Shown: positions 12,610-35,315 of the stretch, in pieces | Numbering within the stretch: position 1 is the first letter of the stretch | How the letters are laid out: the number at the start of each line of letters is the position of its first letter | NCBI GenBank assembly: GCA_050251945.1 | Contig: JBFWLW010000008.1 | Span: 1-64,000 of the forward strand | Origin: Deferribacterales bacterium | GTDB taxonomy: Bacteria > Chrysiogenota > Deferribacteres > Deferribacterales > Geovibrionaceae | Reading direction: 5' to 3' | DNA: 64,000 nucleotides | The notes under the pieces: model-generated | Told to the model about the DNA's origin: nothing | What the model saw: the letters and a program-made list of their open reading frames with translations, nothing else | Databases searched by the model: none | Translations under genes and position numbers: made by a program

Positions 12610-12763
12610 CAGACTGGTGACAAATTGGATTTTACTTTCTATCTCCCCCTTTAGAAAAGGGGGATTAAGGGGGATTTTGATTAAATATCAATCAAATCCA
12701 CCCCAACCCTCCTTTTTCTAAAGGAGGGAGAAAAATGGAAATTACAACTTTGTCAACAACCTG
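12610..12763. mobile_element. 154-bp MITE (IS1182-like ends) with 9-bp target duplication
   Basis: Ends CAGACTGGTGACAAA and TTTGTCAACAACCTG (12/15 complementary). CCTGTGTCT is duplicated at 12601-12609 and 12764-12772. The cargo is a REP-like pair shared with 28581-28671. Confidence 0.8.
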
Positions 12764-14635: not shown

Positions 14636-14668
14636 AAAAAAAGGGGAACCCTTTTCAGGATTCCCCTT
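14636..14668 (-). terminator. Rho-independent terminator ending the cytochrome operon
   Basis: AAGGGGAA(T/C)C stem with a T7 tail on the minus strand, 25 bp after the last stop codon. Confidence 0.75.
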
Positions 14669-14693: not shown

Positions 14694-15740
14694 TCAGAAC
14701 AGACCGTTCACGCTCGTACCATATCCGGCACCGTGGTAATGGCAATCAGTACAGGTTGAGGAGTATGTGCTGGTATGCACAACTTCTTTCAGCCCGTTGG
14801 TCGTGTCTGCACCGCTGTCGTTTGTGTGGCACACAGCGCAAAGCTCGGAGAAGTTGTTCTCCGTGACGCTTACTGATGCGCTTTTTGCCGTGTCGTCAGC
14901 GAGAGTCGCCGTTTTGCCGGATTTCGTTATGAGATACGGGTTATCGGATGAATGCACCTGATGACAGCTTAAGCACGGAAGTTCCATATCGTTGGCGTAG
15001 CTTCCGCGGAATACGCCGAAGCTCTGTCCCTGACCGATTTTCGCGCCGTGGATGTCCGCCGTGGACTTCATTTCGCTCTCTGTGCTTCCAGTACCCATGA
15101 AGGTTGCGTATATATTCGTCTGCTCAGTGTCAAACGCAAGGACAGGCGGCATGATGCTGAAAGCTCCGTTGCCGTCATGACAGTTGAGACAAAAATCGTT
15201 TGTGCTTGCATATGTTGTGCCTGATTGTGTCAAATCAACAGCTACCTCAAGCGTACCGTCCATATCTGACCAATCGTGGCATATCACGCAGTCGGAGTTG
15301 CCTATTTTGCCGTCGCCGTCCAGATCGTGTATTTCCGACCCGCCGAACATGTCGTGGGAAGATACTATATCAGAATCGGCATGACAGGTGAGACACTGGT
15401 ATGTGTCGGCCGTGATGCCTTCAATTCCGTTTGAACCGTGGCAGTAGAGACACGCGCCAATGTCTGTCTCGCCCACTTTTCCGAAGCTCTCGGCGAGTTC
15501 AGGGCTGTAGTCGTGTATATCCTGAAGCTTTTTGATATTGTGGCAGAGGTAGCATTTGTCGTTGCCCCATGCGGTGCCGCCGTAGTGAGCCTCCGGCACA
15601 GTCAGCTGAGGAGCGTCCCCTGTTCTGGTCGTTTTGGGTGAGTCGCTGTCACTTGAGTTTGACCCTCCGCCGCAGGCGGCAGTAACGGCGACGATTGCTA
15701 TAATAGCTATATATGTCAGAGCTTTATAAAATGTCTTCAT
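14694..15740 (-). CDS. Octaheme c-type cytochrome lipoprotein
   Basis: Lipobox TAAC followed by a Gly/Ser linker; 8 CXXCH motifs; acidic, with a DLDGDG motif. Confidence 0.85.
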   Translation of the reverse strand: MKTFYKALTYIAIIAIVAVTAACGGGSNSSDSDSPKTTRTGDAPQLTVPEAHYGGTAWGNDKCYLCHNIKKLQDIHDYSPELAESFGKVGETDIGACLYCHGSNGIEGITADTYQCLTCHADSDIVSSHDMFGGSEIHDLDGDGKIGNSDCVICHDWSDMDGTLEVAVDLTQSGTTYASTNDFCLNCHDGNGAFSIMPPVLAFDTEQTNIYATFMGTGSTESEMKSTADIHGAKIGQGQSFGVFRGSYANDMELPCLSCHQVHSSDNPYLITKSGKTATLADDTAKSASVSVTENNFSELCAVCHTNDSGADTTNGLKEVVHTSTYSSTCTDCHYHGAGYGTSVNGLF

Positions 15741-15742
15741 AA

Positions 15743-16312
15743 TCAGTCCTTCCTGTGACAAGAGATACAGAACTCAACCCTGTGGCATGTGTCGCACGAA
15801 CCTGGGTCTATTGAAGCCTCCAGCGAGTGTTTCAGCTTGAACGAGCGGCTGTGTCTCATGTTCTCCATAGAATTCTGTTTGCTGTGGCAGCTTTCGCAAT
15901 ACCACTGGTCGTGACATGTTTCGCATGCCCTGCTGTCCAGAGTTGCGGGTGCGGCGTGCATCTCTTTCCAGTTGTTAAGGTGATCCGCGGGTTTCAGCAC
16001 TTTCATGTTCTCATGGCATGTGGAACAGTTCTGGGGAGCGGATGCCACCCTTGTTTCGATGTCCCTGTGGCACGAGTGGCATTTGCCGTCTATCTTGAGG
16101 TCGGCGGCAATCTTAAGCTCTCCGCCCTGTTTGATCATAGTCTCAATTGACGGAAGTTTATGACAGTGGAAACAGTCCTTTTTCTGTTGAAAAAGGATGT
16201 CCACATGTTTCTCGTGGTTAAATTTAGTCACGGGGGACTGATAATAAAACTGCGTACATCCGAAGATGACAGGAACGATCAGCAATAGCAGCCATGATAA
16301 CTTCTTAATCAT
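15743..16312 (-). CDS. Heptaheme c-type cytochrome (probable lipoprotein)
   Basis: IFGC lipobox; FNHEKH; 7 CXXCH motifs in 189 aa. Confidence 0.85.
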   Translation of the reverse strand: MIKKLSWLLLLIVPVIFGCTQFYYQSPVTKFNHEKHVDILFQQKKDCFHCHKLPSIETMIKQGGELKIAADLKIDGKCHSCHRDIETRVASAPQNCSTCHENMKVLKPADHLNNWKEMHAAPATLDSRACETCHDQWYCESCHSKQNSMENMRHSRSFKLKHSLEASIDPGSCDTCHRVEFCISCHRKD

Positions 16313-16336
16313 TATATCCTCTTCTCTGGCAATGGT

Positions 16337-17581
16337 TTAAAAATTGTATGCGGCTTTTACGCCATACCTGTTCTCCGGCAGATACCTTGTCTCCCGGCTG
16401 TTTTCCGCATAAATGCTGAGTGTCAGGTCTTTCATTATGTCGTATTCCGCATCGGCATAGAGCGAGTAGATGTTCTCATCCGTCGCGTAGTTTTCAAGTC
16501 TGAGCATCTCGCCCTCGAACGTAACACGGAATTCTTTTGTAAGGCTCCAGTCAAGCGCGGCGCTTGCGCCTTTGGCGTTGGAACTCTCGCTGTCGTAGTA
16601 ATAGCCTTCGATGTTGGCAGAGACTCCCTTTGTCTTAAACCAGTCAAAGTCCACTCCCGCCTTATATATCTGCCCGTCTACTATGTCTCCGCTCTCCTGC
16701 TCTATCTTGGAGTGGACAACGCTGACATACGGGGATACGTTCTCTGTGAATGCATACTGCACCGTAAACGCCATCTTCTCTTCCTGTCCGGTGGAAAAGT
16801 TGCTTATGATGAGTACGTCGTCGTAATTCGTACCGTCTTTAACGTTATATTTCGAGCCTTCCGCTATCAGTCTGAGAGCGTCGCGTTTGAGATACGCTCT
16901 TATCGTGCCTCTGTAGAAGTTATGTTCCAGCATGTCATATTCGCCTTTTGCGTCAACATTTAAAATGTTTTTGCCTGAAAGAGCGAACACCCTGCCGAGA
17001 CCCATGCCTGCAAACTCCTGATATGTGAGGTCGCTGTCGTATTCTTTAGAGTATGAAACGTAGCCTGTCGTATCCTTAACACCGTTAAGGAACACGCGTC
17101 CGCCATACATCTTGTCGCCTGTTTTGCGGAAATCTTCGTTTATGTGTCTGCCGTCGGCATCAAAATACTGGGGCTTGCCCGCAAACGCCGTAACGCCGAA
17201 TTTATAATCCGTGCGAACTGTTGCAAGCGCACCGTCCAGCGTAAGGAATCTGTTGCCGATGTATGAGAAACGTCCTGCCTTGACCTCAACGGCGTTCTGG
17301 AAGCTGGTGTAGTCCAGATATGCTGAATATACGTCGGACTGGCTGTCGCTGTCCTCTTCTGAATCAGTTGCGAAGCGTCCGTAAAAGTTGAAACCGAGAT
17401 ACGGGTCGTATATCTTCGCGTTGTCAATGTTCAGATAGTTTTCCCAGAGGGTTTCCGAACTTTCGCCCTTGTCCTTTGAAACTTCGAGGGCGGTTGAAAA
17501 GAATCCGTCAACATTGTATGCGTATGCGGAAAAACCTGAACACACTATTGACGCAGCTAAGAAAAATTTAAAAAATTTCAC
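16337..17581 (-). CDS. Outer-membrane beta-barrel protein (porin of a porin-cytochrome complex)
   Basis: Signal peptide, alternating aromatic/hydrophobic beta-strand pattern and C-terminal beta-signal YGVKAAYNF; lies between cytochrome genes. Confidence 0.8.
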   Translation of the reverse strand: MKFFKFFLAASIVCSGFSAYAYNVDGFFSTALEVSKDKGESSETLWENYLNIDNAKIYDPYLGFNFYGRFATDSEEDSDSQSDVYSAYLDYTSFQNAVEVKAGRFSYIGNRFLTLDGALATVRTDYKFGVTAFAGKPQYFDADGRHINEDFRKTGDKMYGGRVFLNGVKDTTGYVSYSKEYDSDLTYQEFAGMGLGRVFALSGKNILNVDAKGEYDMLEHNFYRGTIRAYLKRDALRLIAEGSKYNVKDGTNYDDVLIISNFSTGQEEKMAFTVQYAFTENVSPYVSVVHSKIEQESGDIVDGQIYKAGVDFDWFKTKGVSANIEGYYYDSESSNAKGASAALDWSLTKEFRVTFEGEMLRLENYATDENIYSLYADAEYDIMKDLTLSIYAENSRETRYLPENRYGVKAAYNF

Positions 17582-17599
17582 CGGCTTTCTCCCGTTTTA

Positions 17600-19717
17600 T
17601 CAGTTTGCCGCCAGGTCGGCGATGGAAAGATCTAAAAGTAACGCTGCATAATTGGGGTTATGGAAACCGCCGCTTCTGTCGTACAGAAGATAATTATAGT
17701 TGTATGCCGCACGGTTGAGTGCTGTTGTGAGCGCTGTTGTCGATGCACTGTAGCTCGCTGCTATCGCAGTGCCGGAAGCAACTCCCGCTTTTGCATTGAT
17801 GGCAGCTTTAAGCTGATCCATTTTGTCTCTCACGTCTGCAACCCGTCCGTCATATTCGTAATGTCCGTCGGTATATGTGGGCGAAGTTGTGTGACATCCG
17901 GAAACCACGCAGTTTGTAATACGTGCCGCGGGGTCGTCGTGCATATCAAGTTCGTGTGTCGCTTCTCCGTTCTCTTTCATGTGGCAAGTGGCACACTGAG
18001 CGCCAAGACCGGAGTGAATGGACTTTGTATAGCCAAGGCTTTCACCGTATTCATAACCGCCGATACCCTGCATGAATTCTGCCTGAGTGTTGTGCGGGAT
18101 AGTTCCCACAGATGGAAGCGATACTTCCGCGTTGTGGCAGTAATAGCAGAGCTTGCTTGTTCCGACGCTGGCAGTGGTGCCGTCGGGAAGAGTGTAACTT
18201 CCGGTTGTTCTAAGCTGTGAAGCAAGTCCGCTTTCGCCGTGGGGGTCATGGCATACGGAACAGCCGATACCGGATATGCTTTCGGTATTCGACGGGGTTG
18301 TGTCAACGTTAAAGATACGTCCCATCATGCCTTCGCCGGTGTGGCATTTGAAGCATGATGAGTTTCTTGCAACGTTGCCGTTTGCGAGAGTATGAGATTT
18401 ATCATGAGTATCTGAATATTTAAATTCATGCCCGCTCACACCGCTGTAATCGTGGCATGTGAGGCACACGTTGGAAGTTGTGGGTGTTTTGTCATAGTGC
18501 CTGTCGAAGAACCCGCCGCTCACCCCTGCGTTGGGTCCGTGGCAAGCCTCGCAAGTGACACCCTGAAGGTGTGTCGCGCCTGTCGCCGCCATGGTCGTCC
18601 AGTTGGTTACCTTCTCGTCGTAACCTGCGGCAGCGTAGCCGTCATATCTGAAACCTGTGGCATGGCACTGATAGCAAGTTGAATCCGTTTCACCTGAAAT
18701 ATCTGCGAACGCCTGACCGTGGGCGGATGCACCCCACGGAGTGACCATATCGCGCAGAAGCTGACGTCCGTATTTGTCAACTACTGTTGATGAAGCGTAT
18801 GCTCCTGTGTGACATTCCAGATAGCACATTGCTGTGCCTGCGCCCTGATCGGCAGTGTATGTGAGAGCAAATATATTCTTTGTTTCCGTGGTGGTTGTGC
18901 CGTTTACGCCGTTAAGAGTGAGGCTGAGTTTGTATGTTCCCGCAACGTCAGGAACCAGATAAACGCCTGTTCCGCTGTATGTCAGTGTTGCGGACGAACC
19001 TGACGGTTTGGAAGCCAGTGTCCATATATAAGATGAAACGCTTTCGCCGAAGACGACCTCATCAATATCGGCGAAAATACTTTCGCCTGTCTGAACGTGG
19101 TCAATACCGCGCGAAGTGTCAGGAAGCGAGTTGCCCGACGGGTCAAGAAGCGTTGATGTTGCGGCTGAATAGCTGACAGCTTCCAGTTTTATTATGCCGG
19201 ATAAAGATGATTCCGATGTCTGGCTTTTGTATCCTGCGAAATAATCTCCAACAAGTGAAGCGGTCGCAGAAACGTCACTGCCGGAACCGTGTGCAGTGGT
19301 AAACTCCGTTACGCTGTCTCCCAGCGAGCAGAAAACTGAATCCGACGCAGAGCCGCCTTCCGAAGCCAGTATGTTTGCATCATAAGGCACTGTTATGGTT
19401 GCCGGAACGGTGCTTTCCAGCCCGTCCACGGTAATTTTATAAAGTGAGGAGAGCGATATATATCCGCCAACGGAATAGCTTGCCTCCGCTTTTTCAATCG
19501 TGACCGTTTTCCCGGCAAGTTCGTCAGAAGTGGCGCTGACGGAAAATCCTTCCAAATCGCCGCTGCCGACGTAGTTCAGCACACCGTCAGAACCGACCTG
19601 CACGGTTACGATTATACTTGTATCATCATTTATGGAGCTTTTAACGTCTCCGTTGCCCAAACAGCCCGTCAGGGCAAAAAGCGACATAGCTGCAAGCAGA
19701 AATTTAATAAATCTCAT
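17600..19717 (-). CDS. Large multiheme cytochrome lipoprotein (7 CXXCH + CX3CH + CX4CH) with N-terminal Ig/PKD-like beta domains
   Basis: Lipobox LTGC; YIWTLASKPSGSSATL PKD-like motif; heme motifs including CYLECH and CVVSGCH; helical C-terminus D.SGGFHN. Confidence 0.85.
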   Translation of the reverse strand: MRFIKFLLAAMSLFALTGCLGNGDVKSSINDDTSIIVTVQVGSDGVLNYVGSGDLEGFSVSATSDELAGKTVTIEKAEASYSVGGYISLSSLYKITVDGLESTVPATITVPYDANILASEGGSASDSVFCSLGDSVTEFTTAHGSGSDVSATASLVGDYFAGYKSQTSESSLSGIIKLEAVSYSAATSTLLDPSGNSLPDTSRGIDHVQTGESIFADIDEVVFGESVSSYIWTLASKPSGSSATLTYSGTGVYLVPDVAGTYKLSLTLNGVNGTTTTETKNIFALTYTADQGAGTAMCYLECHTGAYASSTVVDKYGRQLLRDMVTPWGASAHGQAFADISGETDSTCYQCHATGFRYDGYAAAGYDEKVTNWTTMAATGATHLQGVTCEACHGPNAGVSGGFFDRHYDKTPTTSNVCLTCHDYSGVSGHEFKYSDTHDKSHTLANGNVARNSSCFKCHTGEGMMGRIFNVDTTPSNTESISGIGCSVCHDPHGESGLASQLRTTGSYTLPDGTTASVGTSKLCYYCHNAEVSLPSVGTIPHNTQAEFMQGIGGYEYGESLGYTKSIHSGLGAQCATCHMKENGEATHELDMHDDPAARITNCVVSGCHTTSPTYTDGHYEYDGRVADVRDKMDQLKAAINAKAGVASGTAIAASYSASTTALTTALNRAAYNYNYLLYDRSGGFHNPNYAALLLDLSIADLAAN

Positions 19718-19735
19718 ATCATCCTCTTTTTGCCG

Positions 19736-20701
19736 TTACTCGGAAGACATGTCTTCCAGAGCCTCCAGCAGATCCTTTGCTTCTTCCGGGTCGTGGCATT
19801 TTGCACAGAGCGCCTCGCGTCCGCCTTCAACAGACAGCAGTTTATCGTTGTCCGAGAAGTGGGGGCTGTGGCAGTCCGCACAGTCGATATCTTTATTAAG
19901 CTTTTCCACCTTCACTCCGGACGTGGGGTGAGTTTTCATATAGCTTGTGCTGTGTATGCTCTCTGAATCGTGACATTCAAAGCAAAGCTCGCCCGGCTGC
20001 TTTCTCAGGTGTGTCCTGTTGGTGGATTTATGGGGCGAATGGCATATGGTGCAGTAACCCTCTATAACGGGAGCGTGTACCATAGGCATTGTATCAATCT
20101 TCTCTTTCATCGTCGTGTGGCACTTAAGGCAGGTATCGGCAAACGGTTCCTGCGGAATAAAGTTGTTCTCTTTTTCGTGGCAGAAGAAACATTTTGCCTC
20201 CGCAACGGGTTTATGCACCCATGCGCCAAGGAATTTGTCGCTGTGGCAGTTCACGCAGTCGCTGAGATTCTCAAACTTATGACAATTAAGGCATATCTCT
20301 TTGTTGGTGCTTGAGTGAAACCCGTTAACCCCTTCTGTCCAGTCGGCAACCTTAGCCGCGGAATCGATCCTGTTGATTACAAACTTCTGAACATCGTCCC
20401 CCTGCGTGATAGTGATGTTGTTTACACCGTCGTCAAGACGCAGGATGGTCATCAGCATATAATAGTCACTGCCCTCTTTATCTTTGGCGCGTATCAGCTT
20501 TTTATCCATGATACTGCCGTTTATGTCTATGCGCACGGGCAGTGTGCTGTCCGAACGCCCGATAACGTGCATGTTGCTGACAGCCTTCATGTTCTGAGAC
20601 ATGGGAAAGATTACTTCCATCTTCGCCCACGCGGAAGAAGCAAAAAGCAGACTACTCAGAATCAATATTAAAGTTATCGGGAAGTTTGATCTCGTCCGCA
20701 T
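19736..20701 (-). CDS. Octaheme c-type cytochrome (paired-CXXCH type) with N-terminal beta domain
   Basis: 8 CXXCH motifs, with H.PV..G.C..CH.PH pattern; signal peptide ending AWA. The start overlaps the upstream TPR gene by 50 nt. Confidence 0.85.
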   Translation of the reverse strand: MRTRSNFPITLILILSSLLFASSAWAKMEVIFPMSQNMKAVSNMHVIGRSDSTLPVRIDINGSIMDKKLIRAKDKEGSDYYMLMTILRLDDGVNNITITQGDDVQKFVINRIDSAAKVADWTEGVNGFHSSTNKEICLNCHKFENLSDCVNCHSDKFLGAWVHKPVAEAKCFFCHEKENNFIPQEPFADTCLKCHTTMKEKIDTMPMVHAPVIEGYCTICHSPHKSTNRTHLRKQPGELCFECHDSESIHSTSYMKTHPTSGVKVEKLNKDIDCADCHSPHFSDNDKLLSVEGGREALCAKCHDPEEAKDLLEALEDMSSE

Positions 20702-21527
20702 GCTTCTTGTCTCCATTTGCTTCATAAATAGTTTTCAAATAATAATTAAGTCTGTTTTCAGATCTGTATTTTCCTTTAAGCCCTGTAAGTATCTCAAGAG
20801 CTTTCTTATTGTCGCCTCCGAGATAGTAGGCGAGTCCGGTGTAGAACTTACATTCGTTGTCCGTGCAGGTTGAAAGAACCTCAAGCGCCTTGTCGGGCGA
20901 TTTGAGCCTGAGATACGTCTGACCGAAAAGGAGTTTGCCCTTGTCGTCAAGTTTTGACGCGTCTATTGAGTTGAGTTCCTTAAGCGCCGCTTCCGTCTCG
21001 CCCTTTTTGGCGAGAAGAAGAACGAAGTTCATTCGGGGGACTATCTTTTTATAGTTCTCCGCGCTCTCCGCCATTTTCAGTTTATCTTCAAGCTCTTTTG
21101 CATCCATTCTGCCTGAAATGAAATCCAGATAGATGCCGACCTTGATGTTAAAACTGCTTTCGCTGTCTATAGAGCCTATCAGTTTGTTCTTTTTATAAAA
21201 CTCCATATAGGGCAGGTGTTTATCTGTAACACCTTTATAGATGAAGCTTTCGTCTCTGCTGCCTCTGAACCCGTCTGCAACGTTTTCAAACGTGGAAGCC
21301 GAGCTTTCGGCGCCGACACACGTCACGGCGTTGTGCGCTTCGCACTCTTTCAGAAAGTCTGCGAACAGACTGACGTTAAATCTGTTATTACTGTCAAAAT
21401 ACAGTACAGCGCGGTTCTCGCTTAAAGGTTTTGATGTCTTAAAAACTGGTTTAAGTTCATCCGCCGCCGCCGCCTGAGAAAATATCAGCGCCGCAGCAAG
21501 CATTCCTGCCGGTATTCTCAGTTTCAC
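20652..21527 (-). CDS. Secreted TPR-repeat protein
   Basis: Signal peptide (AAA-AD); TPR helices FGQTYLRLK..KALEVL and YTGLAYYLGG..KALEIL. Confidence 0.75.
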   Translation of the reverse strand: MKLRIPAGMLAAALIFSQAAAADELKPVFKTSKPLSENRAVLYFDSNNRFNVSLFADFLKECEAHNAVTCVGAESSASTFENVADGFRGSRDESFIYKGVTDKHLPYMEFYKKNKLIGSIDSESSFNIKVGIYLDFISGRMDAKELEDKLKMAESAENYKKIVPRMNFVLLLAKKGETEAALKELNSIDASKLDDKGKLLFGQTYLRLKSPDKALEVLSTCTDNECKFYTGLAYYLGGDNKKALEILTGLKGKYRSENRLNYYLKTIYEANGDKKHADEIKLPDNFNIDSE

Positions 21528-24500: not shown

Positions 24501-24775
24501 TTCAGGTCGAAGAGGAACTGGGGCATCCATTCATAGTGGCAAAGCGCGCACTCTTTGGATGAATCAGGGTTGCTCTTTGTTATGTCAGCCGCAAAAGCGG
24601 ATGGGGAAGCAAACTCTGAAAATCTGTCAAAAACAGATTGAGATTGCTTCGCTGCGCTCGCAAAGACAGTCTGTCTCTGCGAGGAACAGAGTGACGAAGC
24701 AGTCTCGTTTATCTGAATAAAGCCTGTAAATGCCGACACAATTGTTATAACCAGTGCAAGGAGGAGCTTTTTCAT
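21524..24775 (-). CDS. Giant 28-heme c-type cytochrome (tandem paired-CXXCH repeats)
   Basis: 28 CXXCH motifs counted in 1083 aa, with recurring C..CH..H ... LC..CH units; Lys-rich; N-terminal hydrophobic segment. Confidence 0.92.
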   Translation of the reverse strand: MKKLLLALVITIVSAFTGFIQINETASSLCSSQRQTVFASAAKQSQSVFDRFSEFASPSAFAADITKSNPDSSKECALCHYEWMPQFLFDLKGTEVVPYQKDKVVAAEKMCYSCHNGTVGDSRVQVWSGGMHKLSDKIPEHMNIPNNLPLEKGKIACRTCHSAHSTGDPRNDRIDKSIFLRMENYDSQLCMACHKDIGHDGNISHPLKAPQSGYDGMAAAVKSRYGKLGSKGQVVCESCHVAHSPKGEKLLIEPLDGGKVCGVCHENVVDANSGEYVKGLLNHPVNVKHGRQAEMQAMVNEGGKYGKDGKVICSTCHSTHKAKAEGLLVEDNAESKLCYACHNNKKDIVGGKHDMLTAKGFRTKDGKSAQQAGTCQSCHAPHGWSVGLAGDGDLLTKGCIGCHSEGGIANKKIIDTKKFNHSVGKVLKKDMPKNEKLPLFQKIIRFFTTLGSDDSKTEITCATCHDVHGKEKNSLRIDAQNGTLCITCHKEKEMIAKTSHGDKKNEKSCLSCHKVHNSDSERLLAVPENDGCMDCHKKGGSAEKMVIGEHSHPVNMKTKMQMTGDFKTTKDGTFTCVSCHDPHKQSKKGTLDKDFMRGGFADQDSFCSACHQTQKEVAGSDHDVRKKDTDPVCAQCHSVHNAKTNVNMMTVEYAYKTKDDNCIACHNPKGSADKKAVDGGHKMGKIEAHDKYKYLTQKDGEYFIYCSTCHTVHNNGPKKGDEGTVQNSFLDKKITAVNGNFCAGCHEDQKTLKTSPHNVQKFEKNSDKVAKLKAADDTCGACHEVHGDGGYYLFSKSYGKDFEKICSSCHSTDGIASKTAITSSHKMNVKPKKDMKIYLQDGNIVCATCHEPHGPEKGMLRDLGEKNICFACHEDQKLVDMTKHNLAKLDYLNENDKKKAAANVCYACHTPHNFHKDNRLMWAYKPDGKTPFSFEMCTDCHKADGVGYKKIPEKITHDRIFKIFPYRERFKENLFDDKGTVSAEGSITCQTCHNPHVWKAGGTMAASYSVEGDLSNSFLKKDVKAKFCSVCHGETQAKDLFEKYHDKKFRDSRSLINRKMLEAEVLKNLFEIQRNLEKIEGQK
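24610..24726. mobile_element. In-frame 117-bp decayed REP-carrying element inside the 28-heme cytochrome gene
   Basis: Core 24640-24706 is the same palindromic repeat as 57641-57703. Outer ends CAAACT.. and ..CCTG match the terminal bases of the MITE at 4480-4710. Confidence 0.7.
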
Positions 24776-25656
24776 TTTGTCCCCCTCAGTTCGTATACTG
24801 AAACGGTTCTGGCAAAGCCGTCGACAACAGCCATGTAGCGTCCGTTTATTCTCATGTGTGTAACTGATTCAAAAATTACTTTTTTGCCGTTCTTATCTTT
24901 CAGAACGCCCATATATTTGCCGTCTGCATCGAAATACTGCACGGTTCCGTTGTATCCGTCGCCGACAAAAAGTATTTCACCGTTGAGCAGGGCTATCCCT
25001 GTGGGTCTGTAGAACTGCCCCTTGTCAATACCCCACTGTCCGATGAACTCATAGAACTTGAAATCCTTGGTTATCTTCTGTACGCGGGTTCCCAGAACCT
25101 CAGAAACATAAAGAACGCCTTTTTTATCCATCGCCATCGCAAAAGGATACCAGAACTGCAGTTTGTCCTGTCCATAGCCGCCAACAACGGCTTCCACAGC
25201 CTTTGTCCCCATATGGGTTTTGAGTATCCGGTGGTTGTCGTTATCCGCCGAATAAACGTAGCCTCCGGAAACAACGGCATCGGTGGGGTCATATTTCCCC
25301 TTAAGCCCGTGCGCGCCGAACGAACTGAACTTGTCCAGACCGCCTGTCAGCATGTCCAGAGTGTTTTCTGTACTGTTGCAGAAAAGGAAATAATTGCCGC
25401 TTTTAACAAGGCATGTGCCGCCCTTTAAAAAAGCCTTCTGTGTCGATCTGACAGCCTTTCCGTTTCTGTAAACCGTATACGAACCTGAATAGGCGTCGTA
25501 TATCCCTGTGCTTGAATCGCTTTCGACAACCGCATCTGCCGGAGCGGATTTATCGCCCAGCTTCACTTTATAGAGAAGTGATGCTGTCACCTGGGCAGCA
25601 TCACTTATTGCGGTAATACCAAAAAGCAGTAATACGGCGATTATCTTAATTTTCAC
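24772..25656 (-). CDS. Secreted NHL-repeat beta-propeller protein
   Basis: VYSADNDNHRI, FWYPFAMAMD and GQFYRPTGIA NHL motifs; signal peptide. Confidence 0.85.
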   Translation of the reverse strand: MKIKIIAVLLLFGITAISDAAQVTASLLYKVKLGDKSAPADAVVESDSSTGIYDAYSGSYTVYRNGKAVRSTQKAFLKGGTCLVKSGNYFLFCNSTENTLDMLTGGLDKFSSFGAHGLKGKYDPTDAVVSGGYVYSADNDNHRILKTHMGTKAVEAVVGGYGQDKLQFWYPFAMAMDKKGVLYVSEVLGTRVQKITKDFKFYEFIGQWGIDKGQFYRPTGIALLNGEILFVGDGYNGTVQYFDADGKYMGVLKDKNGKKVIFESVTHMRINGRYMAVVDGFARTVSVYELRGTK

Positions 25657-26506
25657 TCTCTGTTCCCTCTGCAGGTTTCAGGAAATTAGGTATATAGAAC
25701 TCTTTATACTTGTTGACCATACCCACAACCTCGTTGCCGACGAGCTGATTTGCTCTCCTTTCGGGATAGCCTATCTTCTCGAAAGGCAGATATGCCTTCA
25801 TACGGTCGGGAGTGTGGCAGTTCTCGCAGTTGACAGCGTTTTTAAGCTCTGTCATAGGTCTGTGGATAACCTTCATGGCGGCGCTTTTCGCTGTGGGAGC
25901 CATGTTGTTTACCTGACTTTTAAACTCGTCAACGTATTTTATCATCTGCTCGTTGTCATAAAGTCTGCTGCCGTCCGCATTCAGAGGCAGAAGCTTGTAA
26001 GGAGTGTCTTTCAGATAGGTTGCAAGGTCTATCTTGTCCACCTGTTTTCCGGTGGTTTTTTCATACCATACAAACTTTGTGGTCATGGTGTTGTTCACTT
26101 TTATGTGGCAAGTTTCGCAAGCCATGAAATATGCGTGCATGTTCAGGAAAGCTCTGACCTCTTTCTTTTTATCGTGAGGAACGTCTCCGTGGCATGAAAC
26201 GCAGAGGTTCTGTGAATCCTGAATCGCTTTTCTGTTTGTATCGTGGAAGTCGTAAAGCTTGTGGCTGCTGTTGATATCGACAACAGGCGCACCGTGTCCG
26301 CCCTCCTGACTTACGCCGGAAATCATCTCCTGATAGAGCTTATCCTCTTTTGAAAGTCCGGCTTCCGAATGCTCCGCATGAGGAGCCTTGTGCCAGATAT
26401 GCATCACAAGTATCTCAACTATGTAACCGCAGTAGACCATTATGGCTATGCCCAGAAGGCAGTAAATTATTCTTTTAGGTCCGACCTTAACGTGTTGGTG
26501 AGACAT
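25646..26506 (-). CDS. Membrane-anchored triheme c-type cytochrome
   Basis: N-terminal TM helix; CVSCH, CETCH, CENCH. Confidence 0.8.
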   Translation of the reverse strand: MSHQHVKVGPKRIIYCLLGIAIMVYCGYIVEILVMHIWHKAPHAEHSEAGLSKEDKLYQEMISGVSQEGGHGAPVVDINSSHKLYDFHDTNRKAIQDSQNLCVSCHGDVPHDKKKEVRAFLNMHAYFMACETCHIKVNNTMTTKFVWYEKTTGKQVDKIDLATYLKDTPYKLLPLNADGSRLYDNEQMIKYVDEFKSQVNNMAPTAKSAAMKVIHRPMTELKNAVNCENCHTPDRMKAYLPFEKIGYPERRANQLVGNEVVGMVNKYKEFYIPNFLKPAEGTESEN

Positions 26507-27408
26507 TATTTATCCCCCTTATCGTTCTTTTCGCTCTCCTGAAGGAAGCTTATCTGGTCTCTGATGATTTCGAGTTTCTCTTCATCTTCGAGTTTCTGCG
26601 CTTCCTGCTGTGCGTCAACGTCAAGCATGTATGTAGGGTCTTTTTCAACTATTTTGTTGATACGCGCCCATTCCACATAATATTCGTGCTTCATCAGGTT
26701 CTCCGGCAGATAGCCTGTAATGAACAGGTTTGATGCGGGGAACTTGTCATAGTTGACGTGGGCATTGTACATGTGCCAGATAAAGATAACGCTGACCGCA
26801 AGCATGGCCTCATCTGAGTGAGCGATGTAGCTTATGTTGACAGCCCAGCCCGGCATGAACGATGCTGCCCAGACAGGGAACCACAGAAAAACGCCTGTGA
26901 TACCGAGAACGGGAATACCCCAAAACACTGCCCAGTAGTCGAACTTCTCTCTCCAGTGGAATCTTTCGTGCTTCGGTCTCTCATCAGAGATGAAAAGCGC
27001 AAATTTAACAAAGTCCGCAATGTCCTTTCCGTCTTTTGCACGGGGACACATGGGCGAGTAGTATACGAAGAGCAGAAGCTCTTTCCAAGAGAAGGTTCCG
27101 CTTCTTTTCGCGGGACCATAGTAGTAGTTGTAAATGTTTTTGATCAGGTAATACCAGTGGTAAAAGAACAGACCGCACATGGTAACGCCTGCTATCCTGT
27201 GAAGTATTCTTGTAACATGCAGCCCGCCGAAGAAATCTATGATGGCAGGAGCCCAGTCATAGTAATGGAACTTCAGAGGGAATCCGGTGAGGGTCAGCAT
27301 CAGAAACGTCGTCATAAGGATATAGTGCTGAGCCTTCTGGTTGCCTGTTATCTTCAGGTAATGTTTTTTACCGTCTTTAATTTTTATCAGCGGCAGTTTT
27401 CTCATCAT
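26506..27408 (-). CDS. Integral membrane cytochrome b (FdnI/CbcB-like)
   Basis: QH..LM..F..L.LTGFP, LHRIAG, EKFDYWAVFWG, AHSDEA.LA and IWHMYN; conserved heme-b His residues in TM helices. Confidence 0.88.
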   Translation of the reverse strand: MMRKLPLIKIKDGKKHYLKITGNQKAQHYILMTTFLMLTLTGFPLKFHYYDWAPAIIDFFGGLHVTRILHRIAGVTMCGLFFYHWYYLIKNIYNYYYGPAKRSGTFSWKELLLFVYYSPMCPRAKDGKDIADFVKFALFISDERPKHERFHWREKFDYWAVFWGIPVLGITGVFLWFPVWAASFMPGWAVNISYIAHSDEAMLAVSVIFIWHMYNAHVNYDKFPASNLFITGYLPENLMKHEYYVEWARINKIVEKDPTYMLDVDAQQEAQKLEDEEKLEIIRDQISFLQESEKNDKGDK

Positions 27409-27420
27409 ATCGGTACCCTC

Positions 27421-28470
27421 TTAATCCTTTTTTTTGCGTCTGAGGCTGAAATTCGGGAACATCTCTCTGATAAGTTCCAGAATCATCAGCACAAGCAGCG
27501 GATAGAATGCACCGATTGTCAGAATGGTGAAACCGAGCGCTACATAGAATTCGACAGGATAAATGTCTTTGTCGATGACAGAGTGCATCCTGATCATACC
27601 GAATTGCTGTGAAGCGTTAGCGTGGCAGTCGGCATCTTCACAGGTTTTATACCTGTTGGCTTCGTAAGTTGCACTTACCGGGTTTCTCCAGCTCTGAATG
27701 TTGTGTGCGGAGTCTCCTTTTTTAACGTGGCAGTCGATACAGCTCGGCGCATGTGGCATTCCGAACTCGACAGCCTTGCCGTGGAACGTATCCAGATATG
27801 TTGCCGCGGCGTTTTTCATTTTATGCTTGGTTGCCATTTCCTCTCTGGAGTGACATTTGCTGCAAGTTTTTACAACGTCCTCCGAAGGGGCAAGGTTCTT
27901 TATCCTGTGCGTGACGTGGTTGAAGAAATATTTATAGTCGACGTTATTGTCGTGGCACACTGCGCATTTCTGCAGAACACGCTCTTTGTGCCGTGCCTCG
28001 CTTACGGTCTCAACGTCGCCCGGGTCAAACCTGTATACAGGGTTTTTATGGCAGTTTGTACAGGAGGGGAAATCCTCTACAATTCGCGCCCTTACGTCAG
28101 GATTGTCAGGGTTATGGATACTTTTCTTAAGGGTATCAAGAATTTTCTTGTGAGAGAAAGGCTTTTCCGAACCGGCATTCTTGATGTGGCATTCGGTTGA
28201 ACAGTCAACAGGTTTCATCTCTTTGTGCGGGATTTCTGTTATGTCGGTGTGACATCCGGTACACTTGACTTTTGTGTGGACAGTGTGTGCGTAGTTGTCG
28301 GAGTCGACATAGAACACCCGAAGATAACCTTCGTCATTGACGCGGGTCAGTCCGGGATACTTGTGGCACATCATGCAGTTTTCACCATCCGTGACGGCTG
28401 CACCTGCCAACCCGCAGGTCAGAAAGAGACTGAAGACCATGACGGCAATAAAACAATATATTCTCATCAT
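27421..28470 (-). CDS. Multiheme c-type cytochrome with C-terminal membrane anchor (CbcA-like)
   Basis: 6 CXXCH plus CSTECH and CEDADCH; YLDTFHGKA motif; signal peptide and C-terminal TM helix; directly upstream of the cytochrome b. Confidence 0.85.
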   Translation of the reverse strand: MMRIYCFIAVMVFSLFLTCGLAGAAVTDGENCMMCHKYPGLTRVNDEGYLRVFYVDSDNYAHTVHTKVKCTGCHTDITEIPHKEMKPVDCSTECHIKNAGSEKPFSHKKILDTLKKSIHNPDNPDVRARIVEDFPSCTNCHKNPVYRFDPGDVETVSEARHKERVLQKCAVCHDNNVDYKYFFNHVTHRIKNLAPSEDVVKTCSKCHSREEMATKHKMKNAAATYLDTFHGKAVEFGMPHAPSCIDCHVKKGDSAHNIQSWRNPVSATYEANRYKTCEDADCHANASQQFGMIRMHSVIDKDIYPVEFYVALGFTILTIGAFYPLLVLMILELIREMFPNFSLRRKKKD

Positions 28471-28580
28471 CAGCTCCAAAAATATAGATGATTAACACTG
28501 ACTTTCGGCAAAATCTGTTAAGCTCCTGTCTCTCCATTCAAACATCGGGGAATAAAGTACCTGAGAGCCTGCTTATTCCC

Positions 28581-28671
28581 ATCTCCCCCTTTGACGAAGG
28601 GAGATTAAGGGGGATTTATATTAAATATTAATCAAATCCACCCCGACCCTCCTTTAGCTAAAGGAGGGAGA
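28581..28671. repeat. REP-like inverted pair, family 2
   Basis: ATCTCCCCCTTT..AAGGG.GATTAAGGGGGATTT..AAATCCACCCC.ACCCTCCTTT..TAAAGGAGGGAGA is colinear with 12641-12731; a partial third arm lies near 28740-28770. Confidence 0.85.
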
Positions 28672-28839
28672 GAAAACAGATATTGTGTATTCACACAATC
28701 TGAAATACAAGATCTGCTTTTGGCATTATCTCCTCAAGCAAATCCACCCCAGCCTTCTTTCGGAAAAGGAAAACAAGACATAAAGTTTCAACCTTGCCAT
28801 AAAGTCTATTAACACAGCCTAAAATCCGGCTATTGCCAT

Positions 28840-28868
28840 AGACTAGAATAGGTCACGGTTATTGTCAA
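28840..28868 (-). promoter_or_regulatory. Sigma70-type promoter for the cbcA-like-to-octaheme operon
   Basis: TTGACA-17 bp-TAGTCT on the minus strand. Confidence 0.6.
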
Positions 28869-29073
28869 CATAAGATAGCCCGACATGTGTCCTAAATTGT
28901 AAATTTTATTAAGATAGCAAAATTTGAATATTCAGAAAACGTTACAGCGGTTTTTTAAGATAATTTCAGGGTATTTTTAAGTGACTGGTTTCAAAATTAA
29001 TTTATTGTTTAATTAATCTGTAATGAAACTTACAAAAAACACAAAACGTGTTTTTCATAGATTAACATTTTTT

Positions 29074-29098
29074 AAAAGGGCGCCCCGAAAGGCGCCCT
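29074..29098 (-). terminator. Terminator after the OmcA/MtrC-like gene
   Basis: AGGGCGCC/GGCGCCCT stem followed by TTTT on the minus strand. Confidence 0.75.
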
Positions 29099-29118
29099 GA
29101 AATTTCAGCGATGTCCGA

Positions 29119-31524
29119 TTAGAACATTGCCATTACTGTTTCAATGATGGTGTCAAGTACACCGTCTGCATCAGTTATAAGGTAACCGAAAGATGCAACG
29201 TGTGCATTGAGTGTAGTAAGATCGCCTGCTTCATCTTCATTGATGTATTTAGTTCTGTGGCAAGAACCGCATGCACGTGAACCGGGACCTGAATCGTAGC
29301 TGGGGATAGTTCCGATGTTTCTGTCCTTAGTCCAAGTGTAAGAAGCAGAGAACTTACCGGGCAGTGATTCTGACTGATCCGGAACATCATATGTGCCTGC
29401 TTCGTGGCAAGACTCACAGTTCATGATTGTGAAGTTAGGATATGTGCTTTCAACATGGTGATCATATTCCATAGCTTCAACATCATCTGTCCAGTCGATG
29501 TTTTTAGTATCGAAAGGCTGCATAGAGTGAATTGCGTGTACGTATGAGTCGATAGAACGTGACTGCATCTCAAGGTGAGAGCCGCCGGACATAGGTGTGT
29601 GACACATACGGCATACAGTTATCTTACCGCCGTAAGAAGGGCTGTGGAATGTTGTTGCAAGCTGAGCGTGACAAGCGTTACATTTAGCTTCGTCAACCAC
29701 TTTGGCAGCACCTTGGAAGTAGTCGGCGACAAGAGCGTTTCCAGACAGGTCAAATGTTGCAGATGCAGCACTTGCGGCAACTACAGTGTCTGTTCCAACG
29801 ATGACTTTAGGCAGAACACCAATCTCTACCTTTGTGATTGCGCCGGAAGTCACAAGACCTGTGTAGTCAAGGGCTTTCATGTCGTAAGTTGCTGTCCAGA
29901 CTGTGCTTGTTGCGTTACCGGTTTTTGTTATGCCGGTGAAGTTAGCTACAGTTGCAGTTGTGCTGAGAGCACCTTCACCAACTCTTACGCCGCTTACCGT
30001 GTTGTGACCTGAAACTATAAAGTTCTTAGTGTCATATCCGTAACCGGAGATGAGAACTGTGGGAACCATAGCTGTCATGTCAGCAACACTGTTTGTTGCA
30101 GCAGCAGTGAACTGGAATGTAAGTGCTTTTGTTGTTGAGTTGTAAGAAGCAGAGTCAACAGTTATGGTTATGTTGTCTGCATACTTAGTCGTTCCGTCTT
30201 TGTAGATTGTTGAGTTATATCCTGTGTGGATAGTGTCAAACTCAACGCCTGAACCGTCCTGGTGACAGCTTGTGTTACAAGCGGCAGAAGATACGGAAAG
30301 CGTGGGGTGGTTTGCGTAAGCAGCCTGTGCTTTCTCGTTCAGGTTGTCAATAGCGTGGCAGCTCTGGCAAGTTGCGATTACGAAGTTATCGTTATCAAGG
30401 ATTTCAGTAAGTTTTCCTTCGTGGCAAGTTACGCAGTTAGCCATGCTTTGAGGATATGCAAATTCCATGTTGTGTGACATGTGAACGTCAGCCATTACGC
30501 TGCGTTTGTAAGCATATTTTGTGTTCTGGTCAGTGGTGGTAACTCCGTCCTGTGCAGCATAAGCTTCAGGATCGTCGTACAGAAGCTGCCAACCAGTGTG
30601 TCCGCCTGCAGTTGTGTCAATGTGACATGCTTTACAAGCAACGAAATCGGGAAGGTTGCCTACAACAGCTTCACGATAGCCGTGCTTTCTGTAAGGTGCG
30701 CCGTGGCAGCCTTCGCAACCTGCTACGTTAGCAGTTGAAGTATAGCCGGTTGTGGCATCATTGGGGTCATCAGCACCGAGAGCGAGAGCTGCACTTGCCA
30801 TGTTGTCATAAAGCTTGATGCTTCCGCCTGTACGAACACCGTTCTGGTCAGCAAGTGAAGTAAGCTGATCTTTTGCAAGGTAGCCGTAAGCGAAAGAATA
30901 GTAAGTTTCAGGAACAACAGACAGACCTGTCTTTGTAATTGTATACACGCCTGTGGCAGCATTGGTAACATCTACAGTTGTTGACGAAATTGAATATGAA
31001 GTCGAAGCTGTAAACTGACCTGTTGTTGCGTCATACAGAGCTACATAGAATGTTTTCTGGGGAAAAGCAGCTACAAAATCAGCAGCAGTAGAGAAAACAT
31101 AAGGAGTGTTGTCGTCATGAAGCACTGTAATTGTCATGACAGATGAAATAGTGGGAGCGGTACCTGCTGAAACAACACTGTTAATTGTAAGTTTGATATC
31201 GCTTACGTTAGTGCCGTCTGTGTCAGTATATTTTGCATATTCTGCCTGGTGAGCAGAACCGTCAAACTGAACAGTACCGTTGTGGCAAGTTGAACAGGAT
31301 TCACCCTGAGCAACTTTATCAGTGATCATCTCTTCCTGAAGAGCGGCGATAGCAGCCTCGTACTCTTCAATTGTGATCAGCCCGGCATCGAGTTGTGCCT
31401 GGAGTTCTGCAATCTGTGCAGAAGCGTCAGCATCTGAGCCATCTGAGCCGTCGTCGCCGCAACCTACGAGCATAAACGCGCAGGTGAAAGCGAGCATTAA
31501 AAGAAATAAAATTCTTCTCGACAT
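29119..31524 (-). CDS. OmcA/MtrC-family decaheme outer-surface cytochrome lipoprotein
   Basis: Lipobox LVGC; 9 CXXCH plus CNTSCH; family-like segments VVDEAKCNACH..FH..VCRMCH, YPQSMANCVTCH and ACGSCH; SD AAGGAGG. Confidence 0.85.
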   Translation of the reverse strand: MSRRILFLLMLAFTCAFMLVGCGDDGSDGSDADASAQIAELQAQLDAGLITIEEYEAAIAALQEEMITDKVAQGESCSTCHNGTVQFDGSAHQAEYAKYTDTDGTNVSDIKLTINSVVSAGTAPTISSVMTITVLHDDNTPYVFSTAADFVAAFPQKTFYVALYDATTGQFTASTSYSISSTTVDVTNAATGVYTITKTGLSVVPETYYSFAYGYLAKDQLTSLADQNGVRTGGSIKLYDNMASAALALGADDPNDATTGYTSTANVAGCEGCHGAPYRKHGYREAVVGNLPDFVACKACHIDTTAGGHTGWQLLYDDPEAYAAQDGVTTTDQNTKYAYKRSVMADVHMSHNMEFAYPQSMANCVTCHEGKLTEILDNDNFVIATCQSCHAIDNLNEKAQAAYANHPTLSVSSAACNTSCHQDGSGVEFDTIHTGYNSTIYKDGTTKYADNITITVDSASYNSTTKALTFQFTAAATNSVADMTAMVPTVLISGYGYDTKNFIVSGHNTVSGVRVGEGALSTTATVANFTGITKTGNATSTVWTATYDMKALDYTGLVTSGAITKVEIGVLPKVIVGTDTVVAASAASATFDLSGNALVADYFQGAAKVVDEAKCNACHAQLATTFHSPSYGGKITVCRMCHTPMSGGSHLEMQSRSIDSYVHAIHSMQPFDTKNIDWTDDVEAMEYDHHVESTYPNFTIMNCESCHEAGTYDVPDQSESLPGKFSASYTWTKDRNIGTIPSYDSGPGSRACGSCHRTKYINEDEAGDLTTLNAHVASFGYLITDADGVLDTIIETVMAMF

Positions 31525-31638
31525 AAATTTAGCCTCCTTTTGCTTTATGTCAAATACTGCCTGTGTCATCAGACATTCTATTGTTTACAGAGGATGCCTG
31601 ATAAGCGCAGGTTTTTTGCTCAATCAAAAATTCAAAAC

Positions 31639-31712: not shown

Positions 31713-31740
31713 AGTATACCAAATAAAATTCAGATGTCAA
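31713..31740 (-). promoter_or_regulatory. Near-consensus sigma70 promoter of the MtrC-like gene
   Basis: TTGACA-16 bp-TATACT with extended -10 TG on the minus strand. Confidence 0.7.
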
Positions 31741-32032: not shown

Positions 32033-33418
32033 TCAGTTAGATTTTAGACGCTTGTGCAGAGCCTGACGTGTTATTCCCAATAGTTTTGCCGCCGAACTGA
32101 TGTTACCATCCGATTCTTTCAGTGCCGAGTCGACAACGTAATGTTCAATTTCCTTTAAAGTAGGGAAGTCACCAAAATATGAAAATGTCTTAACATTCGT
32201 GTTCAACGAACCGTTCACTTTCAGTCCGTGCCTGCTGAAAAAAGACGCCGCTTCATATTCGGAAGGCTTCCTGTCGCCGAAAACCATAGCCATATCAGAC
32301 ATAATTGCCTGTAGCTGGCGCACGTTTCCGGGGAAATCATAGCTTTTGATCATCCTTATTATATATGCCGGAATGCCGCTGACGGCAGCAAGACCGACCT
32401 CCGTTAACGCTCTGTTGTAGAACATGAGCGCAAGATGCTCGACATCGCAGATCCTTTCGCGCAGAGGCGGAATTGAAAGTTTATGAGTAGAAAGCCTGTA
32501 AAAAAGATCCTGACGAAATTTTCCGGAACGCACGCTTTCTTCAAGATCGGCATTTGTTGCGGCAACTATTCTGACGCTCGCGTTCATGTATCTGTCAGAA
32601 CCCAGAGGTGAATAAACCTTCTCCTGCAAGAGTCTGAGAAGTTTGACCTGCGCACTCTCCGCCATGTCCCCTATCTCGTCCAGAAAAAGCGTTCCTCTTT
32701 CCGCCGCGGCGACAAGCCCCTGCCTTGGCTTATCTGCGCCCGTGAAAGCACCTTTGACGTGACCGAAAAGGGTATCGGAAAACATAGTGTCGTCCAGCCC
32801 GGCAACGTTGACGGGAACGAACTGCCCTTTCCGCCCGCTGCATTCGTGTACTGCACGGGCAAAAAGTTCTTTGCCGACACCTGTTTCCCCTGTAATAAGC
32901 ACAGGAAAACTGCTTTTTGAGACCGATTCAATATATCTGAAAACTTCTTTCATCCTGCCGTCGGCAGTCATAATTCCGTGAAAGTCAACCAGATCGCTGT
33001 TTTCGTCCGTACGCAGGGCATTTCTGAGAGCCTCTATCTCCATATGCATCTGAAAAGCGTTCACTGCCGCATGATATGCCGCGGCAAATCTGTCGCTGTC
33101 CAGAGGTTTTACAAGGAAGTTCAGCGCCCCGTTCTGTATGCACCGGACAGCCGTACTGATGTCGTTGTTTCCGGTTACTATTATAACAGATGCCGCCGGA
33201 TGCCTCTTCTTTATCATATCAAGAAGTTCCTCTCCTGTATGATAAGGCATCTGCAGGTCAACAAAAACCGCCATGGGGTTTATTGAGTCTATAGTCTCAA
33301 CAAACTCTCTGGGGTCGTTATGGATGACATAATCAGCTATGCCGTTTCTTTTCATAAAGATGGCATAGGAATCGGTTATCATTTTTTCATCATCAATGAT
33401 GACGACCTTTGATGTCAT
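32033..33418 (-). CDS. Sigma54-dependent NtrC-family response regulator
   Basis: REC domain; GETGVGKE, LFGHVKGAFTGA, LFLDEIG and FPGNVRQL; Fis-type HTH. Confidence 0.95.
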   Translation of the reverse strand: MTSKVVIIDDEKMITDSYAIFMKRNGIADYVIHNDPREFVETIDSINPMAVFVDLQMPYHTGEELLDMIKKRHPAASVIIVTGNNDISTAVRCIQNGALNFLVKPLDSDRFAAAYHAAVNAFQMHMEIEALRNALRTDENSDLVDFHGIMTADGRMKEVFRYIESVSKSSFPVLITGETGVGKELFARAVHECSGRKGQFVPVNVAGLDDTMFSDTLFGHVKGAFTGADKPRQGLVAAAERGTLFLDEIGDMAESAQVKLLRLLQEKVYSPLGSDRYMNASVRIVAATNADLEESVRSGKFRQDLFYRLSTHKLSIPPLRERICDVEHLALMFYNRALTEVGLAAVSGIPAYIIRMIKSYDFPGNVRQLQAIMSDMAMVFGDRKPSEYEAASFFSRHGLKVNGSLNTNVKTFSYFGDFPTLKEIEHYVVDSALKESDGNISSAAKLLGITRQALHKRLKSN

Positions 33419-35256: not shown

Positions 35257-35315
35257 ATCAGCCTCGAGCGTAATAAACACGGTGCATGTATAATTTTTCA
35301 TTACAAAAACGAAAG

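Follow-up and report, generated by a model that had tools for sequence, protein, structure and literature searches.

Gene content of the locus

The 64,000-nucleotide stretch of Deferribacterales bacterium DNA analysed here as a whole (the window; part of contig C8 of a 3.07-Mb genome, G000) carries a cluster of multiheme cytochrome genes that may form a route by which electrons leave the quinone pool and reach the cell surface. Twelve open reading frames (ORFs), all on the minus strand, span positions 14694-31569. We labelled them A to L in the order of transcription; in comparisons, L-numbers denote loci of relatives and G-numbers genomes, G000 being the source genome. The genes contain 76 CXXCH heme-binding motifs, distributed from A to L as 9, 6, 0, 3, 0, 28, 0, 8, 7, 0, 7 and 8, and five extended CX3-4CH motifs (1+2+2), giving 81. 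In the same 16.9 kb, the three plus-strand frames contain 0 CXXCH, versus 76 in the minus frames. Of the genome's 246 CXXCH motifs, counted in ORFs with at least two of them, 76 lie in this locus. A preliminary description of this DNA had given the same order of 12 co-oriented genes and the same motif numbers, and both agree exactly with the ORF positions and our recount.

Gene A (29119-31524) encodes a decaheme lipoprotein of predicted MtrC/OmcA/UndA fold, as judged from its model, Foldseek and motif counts, and is a variable neighbour of the other genes. B (27421-28479) is an octaheme (6+2) cytochrome with a C-terminal membrane anchor, recognised from its motifs and from fusions to cytochrome b. 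C (26506-27408) is an FdnI-type di-heme cytochrome b (PF01292 above cut-off; FdnI 1KQF, E 0.0025) and D (25646-26506) an N-terminally anchored triheme cytochrome which, from its fusions to C, would be the third subunit of the inner module. E (24772-25656) encodes an exported NHL beta-propeller (PF01436), and F (21524-24775) a 28-heme cytochrome made of paired-CXXCH repeats and predicted from its motif count to act as a periplasmic wire. G (20652-21527) is an accessory protein with weak tetratricopeptide repeat (TPR) matches here and strong ones in its orthologues. H (19736-20725; PF09699) is an octaheme cytochrome predicted to be periplasmic. The last four genes encode a nonaheme (7+2) lipoprotein assigned by profile search to the OcwA/NrfA-fold group, with an Ig/PKD-like N-terminal part (I, 17600-19717); a modelled 22-stranded outer-membrane barrel orthologous to a porin-cytochrome (Pcc) group III porin (J, 16337-17581); a heptaheme lipoprotein predicted by alignment and modelling to thread this barrel (K, 15743-16312); and, from its motifs and N-terminus, an octaheme predicted lipoprotein that is a candidate outer-face cytochrome (L, 14694-15761). 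A lipobox pattern is present in the 816-, 705- and 189-residue proteins of the locus. The 355-residue protein has a cysteine after a hydrophobic stretch, but outside the lipobox pattern used.

Gene A is separated from the B-L operon

B to L are predicted to form one operon, and A stands apart. Neighbouring genes from B to L overlap or sit at most 25 bases apart, and the gap between A and B is 640 bases. A terminator-like hairpin follows A at 29074-29098 (minus strand; -18 kcal/mol, z -3.6, matched by 1 of 200 shuffles). It has only four T residues and lies outside the output of the consensus terminator scan; a hairpin with a T-tail was found 3' of the gene upstream of B in 6/6 loci examined. 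A second hairpin, at 14641-14668 (minus strand; z -4.1, 0 of 200 shuffles as good), closes the operon. A sigma70-type promoter is predicted for A at 31713-31740 (minus strand; 11/12 consensus, extended -10, the best site of the scan), and its sequence recurs upstream in L002 and L004. The predicted promoter of the 11-gene operon (28840-28934, minus strand) combines TTGACA-17-TAGTCT at 28868-28840 with a TGAATAT box at 28934-28925. Upstream of B, TTGACA is kept in 8 of 10 aligned regions and the TGAATA box in 9 of 10, across four genera. The totals of the promoter and terminator scans are at chance level (23 vs 23.7 and 19 vs 18.2), and sites were accepted only if conserved or stable against shuffles.

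Because a hairpin and a conserved second promoter lie between A and B, A is set apart from the 11-gene block. The self-contained 12-gene hybrid of the preliminary description is not supported: as a neighbour, A varies among the relatives, and it has a predicted terminator of its own.

Four copies of ATGACCGTGT upstream of A were considered as an operator array and rejected as a local expansion. L002 has one copy and L004 no exact copy; the genome has 4 further copies, versus about 6.5 expected by chance. The A-B gap also contains, at 28575-28675 of the window, a second dispersed palindromic repeat with 38 blastn matches in the genome, one of them at 12641-12735. Upstream of A, a sigma54 response regulator and a hybrid kinase are encoded at 32033-35301 (minus strand), a pair that borders the locus in same-genus loci only.

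Inner-membrane module and wire

In an alignment of 16 sequences, H28, H70, H197 and H212 of C are invariant and follow the FdnI pattern, with H197 and H212 as the FdnI/CbcL-type pair. C matches TIGR01583 as well as 1KQF. The anchor helix of B has no histidine, and the invariant H299 precedes it. Of the 65 longer homologues of C, 43 have B and C fused, 4 have C and D fused, and the remaining 18 are of other kinds; no named CbcL was found among these 65 matches. A C-D fusion also occurs in L044. Since B-C and C-D fusions are both found among the homologues of C, B, C and D may form a three-subunit complex. As judged from sequence, B would contribute the c-type half, next to C, of a quinol oxidoreductase that resembles a split CbcL, with D as the third subunit.

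The module had been described as CbcBA-like. CbcB is defined by three histidines, to which the C-terminal part of CbcA adds a fourth ligand, and CbcL by two histidines in one helix, as in formate dehydrogenase (bioRxiv 2021.04.15.440034). We abandoned the CbcBA assignment because C holds all four invariant histidines in the FdnI/CbcL-type pattern and the anchor helix of B holds none. CbcBA also has a seven-heme c subunit and a BccR/sigma54 operon, whereas B has 6+2 motifs and the conserved promoter is sigma70-like; the sigma54 regulator near the locus adjoins it only in same-genus loci. The Geobacter CbcL and CbcBA systems share with the present one a b-type plus multiheme c-type inner-membrane module, and CbcL also the FdnI-like histidine pair. 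CbcL, however, is one polypeptide with a multiheme c part and a six-helix b domain, whereas here B and C are split and the anchored triheme D is added. The likeness to a split CbcL is drawn from features described for CbcL (GSU0274 in G. sulfurreducens).

In L043 (8084-14728), from a metagenome-assembled genome labelled Methyloversatilis, the B-C-D triad occurs twice around an NHL gene and near an 11-heme cytochrome.

Orthologues of F at 35-41% identity likewise carry 28 motifs. In the window, the 5' end of F (24641-24709, minus strand) contains a genome-wide repeat in frame within the leader (about 70 blastn matches at E<=1e-3). It adds about 43 residues that are missing from five orthologues and may change the export of F in this strain.

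Outer-membrane module

The model of J shows 22 strands and no plug (predicted local distance difference test, pLDDT, 85.9). Its nearest named relatives are from Seleniivibrio (95% and 77%), Denitrovibrio (Dacet_0793, 56%), Geovibrio (51%) and Limisalsivibrio (47%). Dacet_0793 and Dacet_0794 are listed as a group III Pcc porin and cytochrome, with published porins of 18-22 strands and adjacent cytochromes of 5-14 hemes (PMC4245776), ranges that include the 22 strands of J and the 7 hemes of K. Dacet_0794 is most likely the orthologue of K, because it has the next locus tag to Dacet_0793. K is a lipoprotein, like ExtC and ExtF (PMC6148476), and this trait is conserved, with G18/C19 kept in at least 90% of 22 aligned rows. 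A fusion of a 6+2-heme cytochrome with cytochrome b, Dester_0351, equivalent to B+C, is described beside other group III clusters (PMC4245776). The tables of the same paper list no outer-membrane cytochrome for Dacet, and its text names no inner module, wire, I, L or A for Dacet.

When J and K were modelled together, the pair scored 0.69, versus 0.00 for the best of three controls. The pass mark used is reached by 116/157 solved pairs and by 2/215 mismatched pairs. The runs share at least 46% of contacts, with a partner pLDDT of at least 62. In the model, residues 101-180 of K touch alternating residues on most strands of J, that is, the lumen. K is predicted to thread the barrel, and the cytochrome-threaded barrel proposed earlier is borne out at the level of a prediction. 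Fold searches with J returned generic barrels only, with no Pcc porin structure among the matches listed. A PDB sequence search with K gave only weak multiheme matches, and atlas searches with J and D gave only clusters without names.

CXXCK is the active-site motif of NrfA and of octaheme nitrite reductases. It was found in none of the 12 proteins. Profile matches of I are 6I5B (E 1e-20), 6QVM (3e-6) and KIAA0319-like (5e-4). I thus resembles OcwA of Thermincola (6I5B; PMC6703420) in its nine hemes and NrfA-like C-terminal region, and differs from it in being a diderm lipoprotein that is linked to a porin and is longer at the N-terminus by about 280 residues. I is a candidate surface reductase and L a candidate outer-face cytochrome; both have lipoprotein-type N-termini, compatible with either membrane face. 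A search for secretins gave one match, below cut-off.

Gene A and the MtrC family

The model of A (pLDDT 87.3) matches MtrC, MtrF, OmcA and UndA, and the fold call made earlier for the first gene therefore holds. All of the top 15 Foldseek matches are MtrC, OmcA, UndA or MtrF (E 4e-16 to 8e-11), and structural comparison gives Z values of 12.5-13.8 (at best Z 13.8, root mean square deviation 5.1, 518 residues aligned). TIGR03507 scores 159.2 bits on A, under its cut-off of 209.3, and a PDB sequence search with A alone gave no match. MtrC, OmcA and UndA have ten hemes arranged as 5+5 and a redox-active disulfide. A shares their four-domain fold but shows only 13-20% identity, a 1+5+4 heme layout and no cysteine for the disulfide (22 cysteines, 20 for heme and 2 in the leader). 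It also lies outside the conserved gene block.

An origin from a Shewanella-like reductase could not be maintained. The sequence group of A has 571 matches, with named members from Anaeromyxobacter, Desulfuromonas and others at 43-48% identity, as against 13-20% for the Shewanella proteins. The earlier statement that no MtrA or MtrB is recognisable agrees, for MtrB, with a search that found PF11854 in 0/16 family genomes but in which no control genome passed the cut-off either. G000 encodes three further MtrC-like lipoproteins, likewise decahemes of 1+5+4 layout (C2:106819-112266 and C4:116781-119120).

The slot upstream of B is visible in 10 family genomes. It holds an MtrC-like gene in four, another multiheme gene in one and no cytochrome in five. 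The genes in this slot share 22-45% identity with A, and a quick tree (18 rows, no bootstrap) does not unite them in one clade. MtrC-like genes occur in 9 of the 12 family genomes with C and J and in none of the 4 without, these relatives being kin and not independent; a TIGR03507 match is missing in 3 of the 12 conduit genomes. Near the cluster, A or a homologue of it is placed in three different ways (here, in L044 and in L050). From these sequence patterns, a loose functional tie may link the MtrC-like genes to the conduit. A is probably an optional, separately regulated surface cytochrome, and it may draw on the B-L conduit.

Distant J-like barrels with other cytochrome partners are found in L015 (G001) and L014 (G003). 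In L015, the barrel is followed by canonical 5+5 MtrC-like genes, a second case of an MtrC-type cytochrome beside a small barrel.

Conservation in the family and the phylum

Among 15 family relatives, J and I are present in 12 and C and D in 11. The order B-L is the same in 9 of the 11 family regions fetched; of the other two, one breaks off within B where its contig ends, and the other has lost B-E. In a twelfth family genome the cluster is split over contigs. Beyond the family, B-C-D-E-F stand in this order in 8/8 genomes read from four other families. In 7/8 of them a 13-heme gene, G and H follow F, and 5/8 carry a Uet-like module. D is present in 26 of 68 genomes of the phylum. E follows D in the loci examined and is missing in L041. 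A profile search for I in families f2-f10 did not find it. The range outside the phylum is undersampled, with 10 loci from a single-protein genome scan and 9 loci from a metagenome scan of one pattern.

Several loci deviate from the common layout. In L012 and L013 (G049 and G040; families f6/f7), a compact B-C-D-E-F-J-K-L version without G, H and I likely represents a minimal conduit. L003, in a 99% complete genome of the same genus (G033), has only the 3' part of F through L, and C and D were not found there; this is either a natural truncation or an assembly fault. In L048 (13178-15430), the 13-heme and TPR gene pair of the Deferribacter-type cluster follows L directly on the opposite strand.

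About 32 kb from the locus, two WWD-motif genes (63312-63980 of the window and G000 C8:65359-67275) are likely the heme-attachment genes CcmC and CcmF.

Published counterparts

The Deferribacter cluster of 19 genes (DEFDS_0741-60; PMC6896113, PMC13186404) contains B, C, D, E and F in the same order. On a D. thermophilus contig (L042), identities are 48% for B, 61% for C, 43% for D, 30% for E and 37% for F. These five genes fit DEFTHER_v1_210005-10, part of the published cluster, whose third gene, the cytochrome b, is annotated as formate dehydrogenase (PMC13186404). The Deferribacter cluster differs in that no I or J was found; a 13-heme gene, a two-component pair and an outer module of Uet-like kind take their place. 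For this distal module (tetrahemes, an approximately 793-residue protein, a peptidyl-prolyl isomerase (PPIase), a propeller and a decaheme), a search of the G000 proteome at E 1e-8 was negative.

A second counterpart is found in Desulfurivibrio. The C-D fusion of D. alkaliphilus, WP_013164303, is 45% identical to C, 25% to D and 45% to the fusion of L044. It corresponds to DA_2141, at the end of the six-gene cluster DA_2136-2141 (PMC12545173), which has 794, 440, 196, 369, 364 and 582 codons and 9, 0 (porin), 7, 8, 8 and 3 hemes. C-D is matched by sequence, and its neighbours fit I, J, K, L and B by order, size and heme count. Proteins of D. alkaliphilus are named there MtrA-like, OmaC-like and CbcL-like, the last being the C-D fusion. 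The cluster differs in that the outer module comes first and C and D are fused; it was published without a link to Deferribacterota. In D. dismutans, the C-D fusion is RS02830, followed by an NHL gene and an 837-residue cytochrome (PMC12142623).

L044 (source name Deltaproteobacteria; barrel P0099) carries A, I-J-K-L, an octaheme, B, a C-D fusion, E and a 20-heme protein. All the modules thus recur, rearranged, in another phylum, and the homologue of A (43%) lies 3.4 kb upstream. L044 differs by its shorter wire (20 motifs) and because G was not seen; G is also missing from L012 and L013.

One-locus conduits are already known: PCC3 (PMC5566968), ExtABCD (PMC6148476), Uet (bioRxiv 2022.05.06.490989) and the SEEP-SRB operons. 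PCC3 shares the one-locus concept, a cytochrome b-like protein, a large periplasmic cytochrome and a porin. It differs in having two WX3HX13H motifs in its inner-membrane protein, from which the pattern of C departs in an alignment read by eye, and an extracellular cytochrome of 30 or about 34 hemes (PMC5566968), compared with 8-10 in the surface candidates here, where the inner module has three subunits. The SEEP-SRB 16/26-heme operon (PMC5539420, PMC10553843) was also considered; the present locus is without PPIase. Mtr, Omc and Pcc parts in one genome have been reported for Desulfobacterota (PMC12133095).

The architecture can therefore not be called unrecognised, since the porin with its adjacent cytochrome, the inner module and the Desulfurivibrio counterpart are each in print. 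In the literature searched, subscription papers and figures aside, we found no description of the 11-gene operon as a whole or of a link between these records, and no biochemically characterised member. What is new here is the joining of these records into one modular system, together with MtrC-fold lipoproteins without MtrAB.

Proposed electron path and alternative readings

We consider it likely that B-L is an envelope-spanning heme chain from quinol to insoluble acceptors such as Fe(III) oxide, with A as an optional surface partner. The quinol-to-surface conduit proposed earlier is thus supported as a reading of gene content; locations, carrier order, direction and acceptor are what we infer. 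Quinol would be oxidised at cytochrome b C and electrons passed to the anchored cytochromes B and D. They would cross the periplasm on the 28-heme F and the octaheme H, with the propeller E and the TPR protein G as scaffold or assembly factors. They would then enter the heptaheme K inside the 22-strand barrel J, and leave it for the lipoprotein cytochromes L and I and an insoluble acceptor at the cell surface. The MtrC-fold A, one of four paralogues, would be an optional surface cytochrome possibly fed by the conduit. In D. alkaliphilus, DA_2136-2141 are all up in three ferrihydrite conditions, with log2 fold changes (log2FC) of 2.4-3.9 versus sulfide plus nitrate and 1.4-2.0 versus sulfur disproportionation (PMC12545173).

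Several points weigh against this path. The locus of the source organism is known from its sequence alone. Only one of the six D. alkaliphilus genes is tied to it by sequence; for the other five, the match is one of order, size and heme count. A search of two supplements of PMC12545173 did not find the genes that follow DA_2141, likely the propeller and the wire, and an OmcS-like gene elsewhere in that genome is induced far more, with log2FC up to 11.3 (PMC12545173). In D. dismutans, the locus RS02815-02855 is far higher on formate plus nitrate than on sulfur, and the study proposes a nitrite reductase (PMC12142623). D. desulfuricans, which is reported not to reduce iron, has the inner module as well (PMC6896113). 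The barrel occurs in G. thiophilus and S. woodruffii, yet both fall in the multiheme-ratio range given for non-Fe(III)-reducers in PMC13186404. The J+K model was built without hemes and one run scored 0.44; its pass could stem from likeness to MtrAB, and the fold of J is nearer to 22-strand transporters (Z 18.8) than to MtrB (Z 14.1).

The D. dismutans data could fit a different acceptor. At the outer membrane, the chain could serve soluble or colloidal acceptors (nitrite, Se or As oxyanions, polysulfide) in place of minerals, and I, with its NrfA fold, would be the catalyst. In sulfur versus formate plus nitrate, RS02855 has a log2FC of -4.6 and RS02850 of -3.5, that is, higher with nitrate, and the C-D fusion and propeller are detected only with nitrate (PMC12142623). 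OcwA reduces nitrite in vitro (PMC6703420), and Se-oxyanion or sulfur roles have been proposed for Pcc clusters of non-metal-reducers (PMC4245776). However, donor and acceptor both change in the D. dismutans comparison, and the six D. alkaliphilus genes are lowest on sulfide plus nitrate and highest in all three ferrihydrite conditions (PMC12545173). I is without CXXCK, escaped the search of families f2-f10 and is lacking from the conduit of L012 and L013. We regard a soluble acceptor as unlikely.

Electron flow in the inward direction, from reduced minerals, electrodes or partner cells to the quinone pool, is suggested by the joining of the inner module to the Uet-like module (three tetrahemes, an approximately 793-residue protein, a PPIase, a propeller and a 10-11-heme cytochrome) in the 5/8 other-family genomes. 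Uet has been proposed for electron uptake (bioRxiv 2022.05.06.490989), and sequence does not fix the direction of flow. The only condition-resolved data, however, show induction with ferrihydrite as acceptor, and the Uet likeness is one of gene kinds and order, not of sequence comparison. Inward flow appears quite improbable.

That all 12 genes form one unit with the MtrC-like A as obligatory terminal reductase would suit the MtrC fold of A, its homologues near the cluster in three arrangements and the restriction of MtrC-like genes to family genomes with the conduit, but it is very improbable given the hairpin and conserved second promoter between A and B, a slot that holds no cytochrome in 5/10 relatives and another cytochrome in 1/10, slot genes that are not one clade, and the 3/12 conduit genomes without a TIGR03507 match.

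The outward conduit B-L, with A optional, may also be part of a broader scheme. More speculatively, a third, plug-and-play architecture could extend across Deferribacterota, Desulfobacterota and Betaproteobacteria, in which a conserved inner core (split CbcL-like triad, propeller and 20-28-heme wire) docks with one of two outer conduits, a 22-strand Pcc or a Uet-like one. Orphan MtrC-fold decahemes of the 1+5+4 type would then be exchangeable surface reductases charged by a non-MtrAB conduit, and the system would supply the Fe(III)-reduction pathway still missing for Deferribacterota. We put this forward tentatively, as a possibility that falls short of an even chance.

Implications

The Fe(III)-reduction system of Deferribacter has been called unresolved (PMC6896113), and the analysis in PMC13186404 rests on marker genes. 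The present comparison brings together, as one modular system present in cultured strains, the Deferribacter cluster, the Pcc porin of Denitrovibrio and the Desulfurivibrio cluster induced on ferrihydrite. It offers the anchored triheme D and the barrel J as specific marker genes. If MtrC-fold proteins do work via a non-MtrB porin, this would explain the orphan mtrC-like genes of many genomes.

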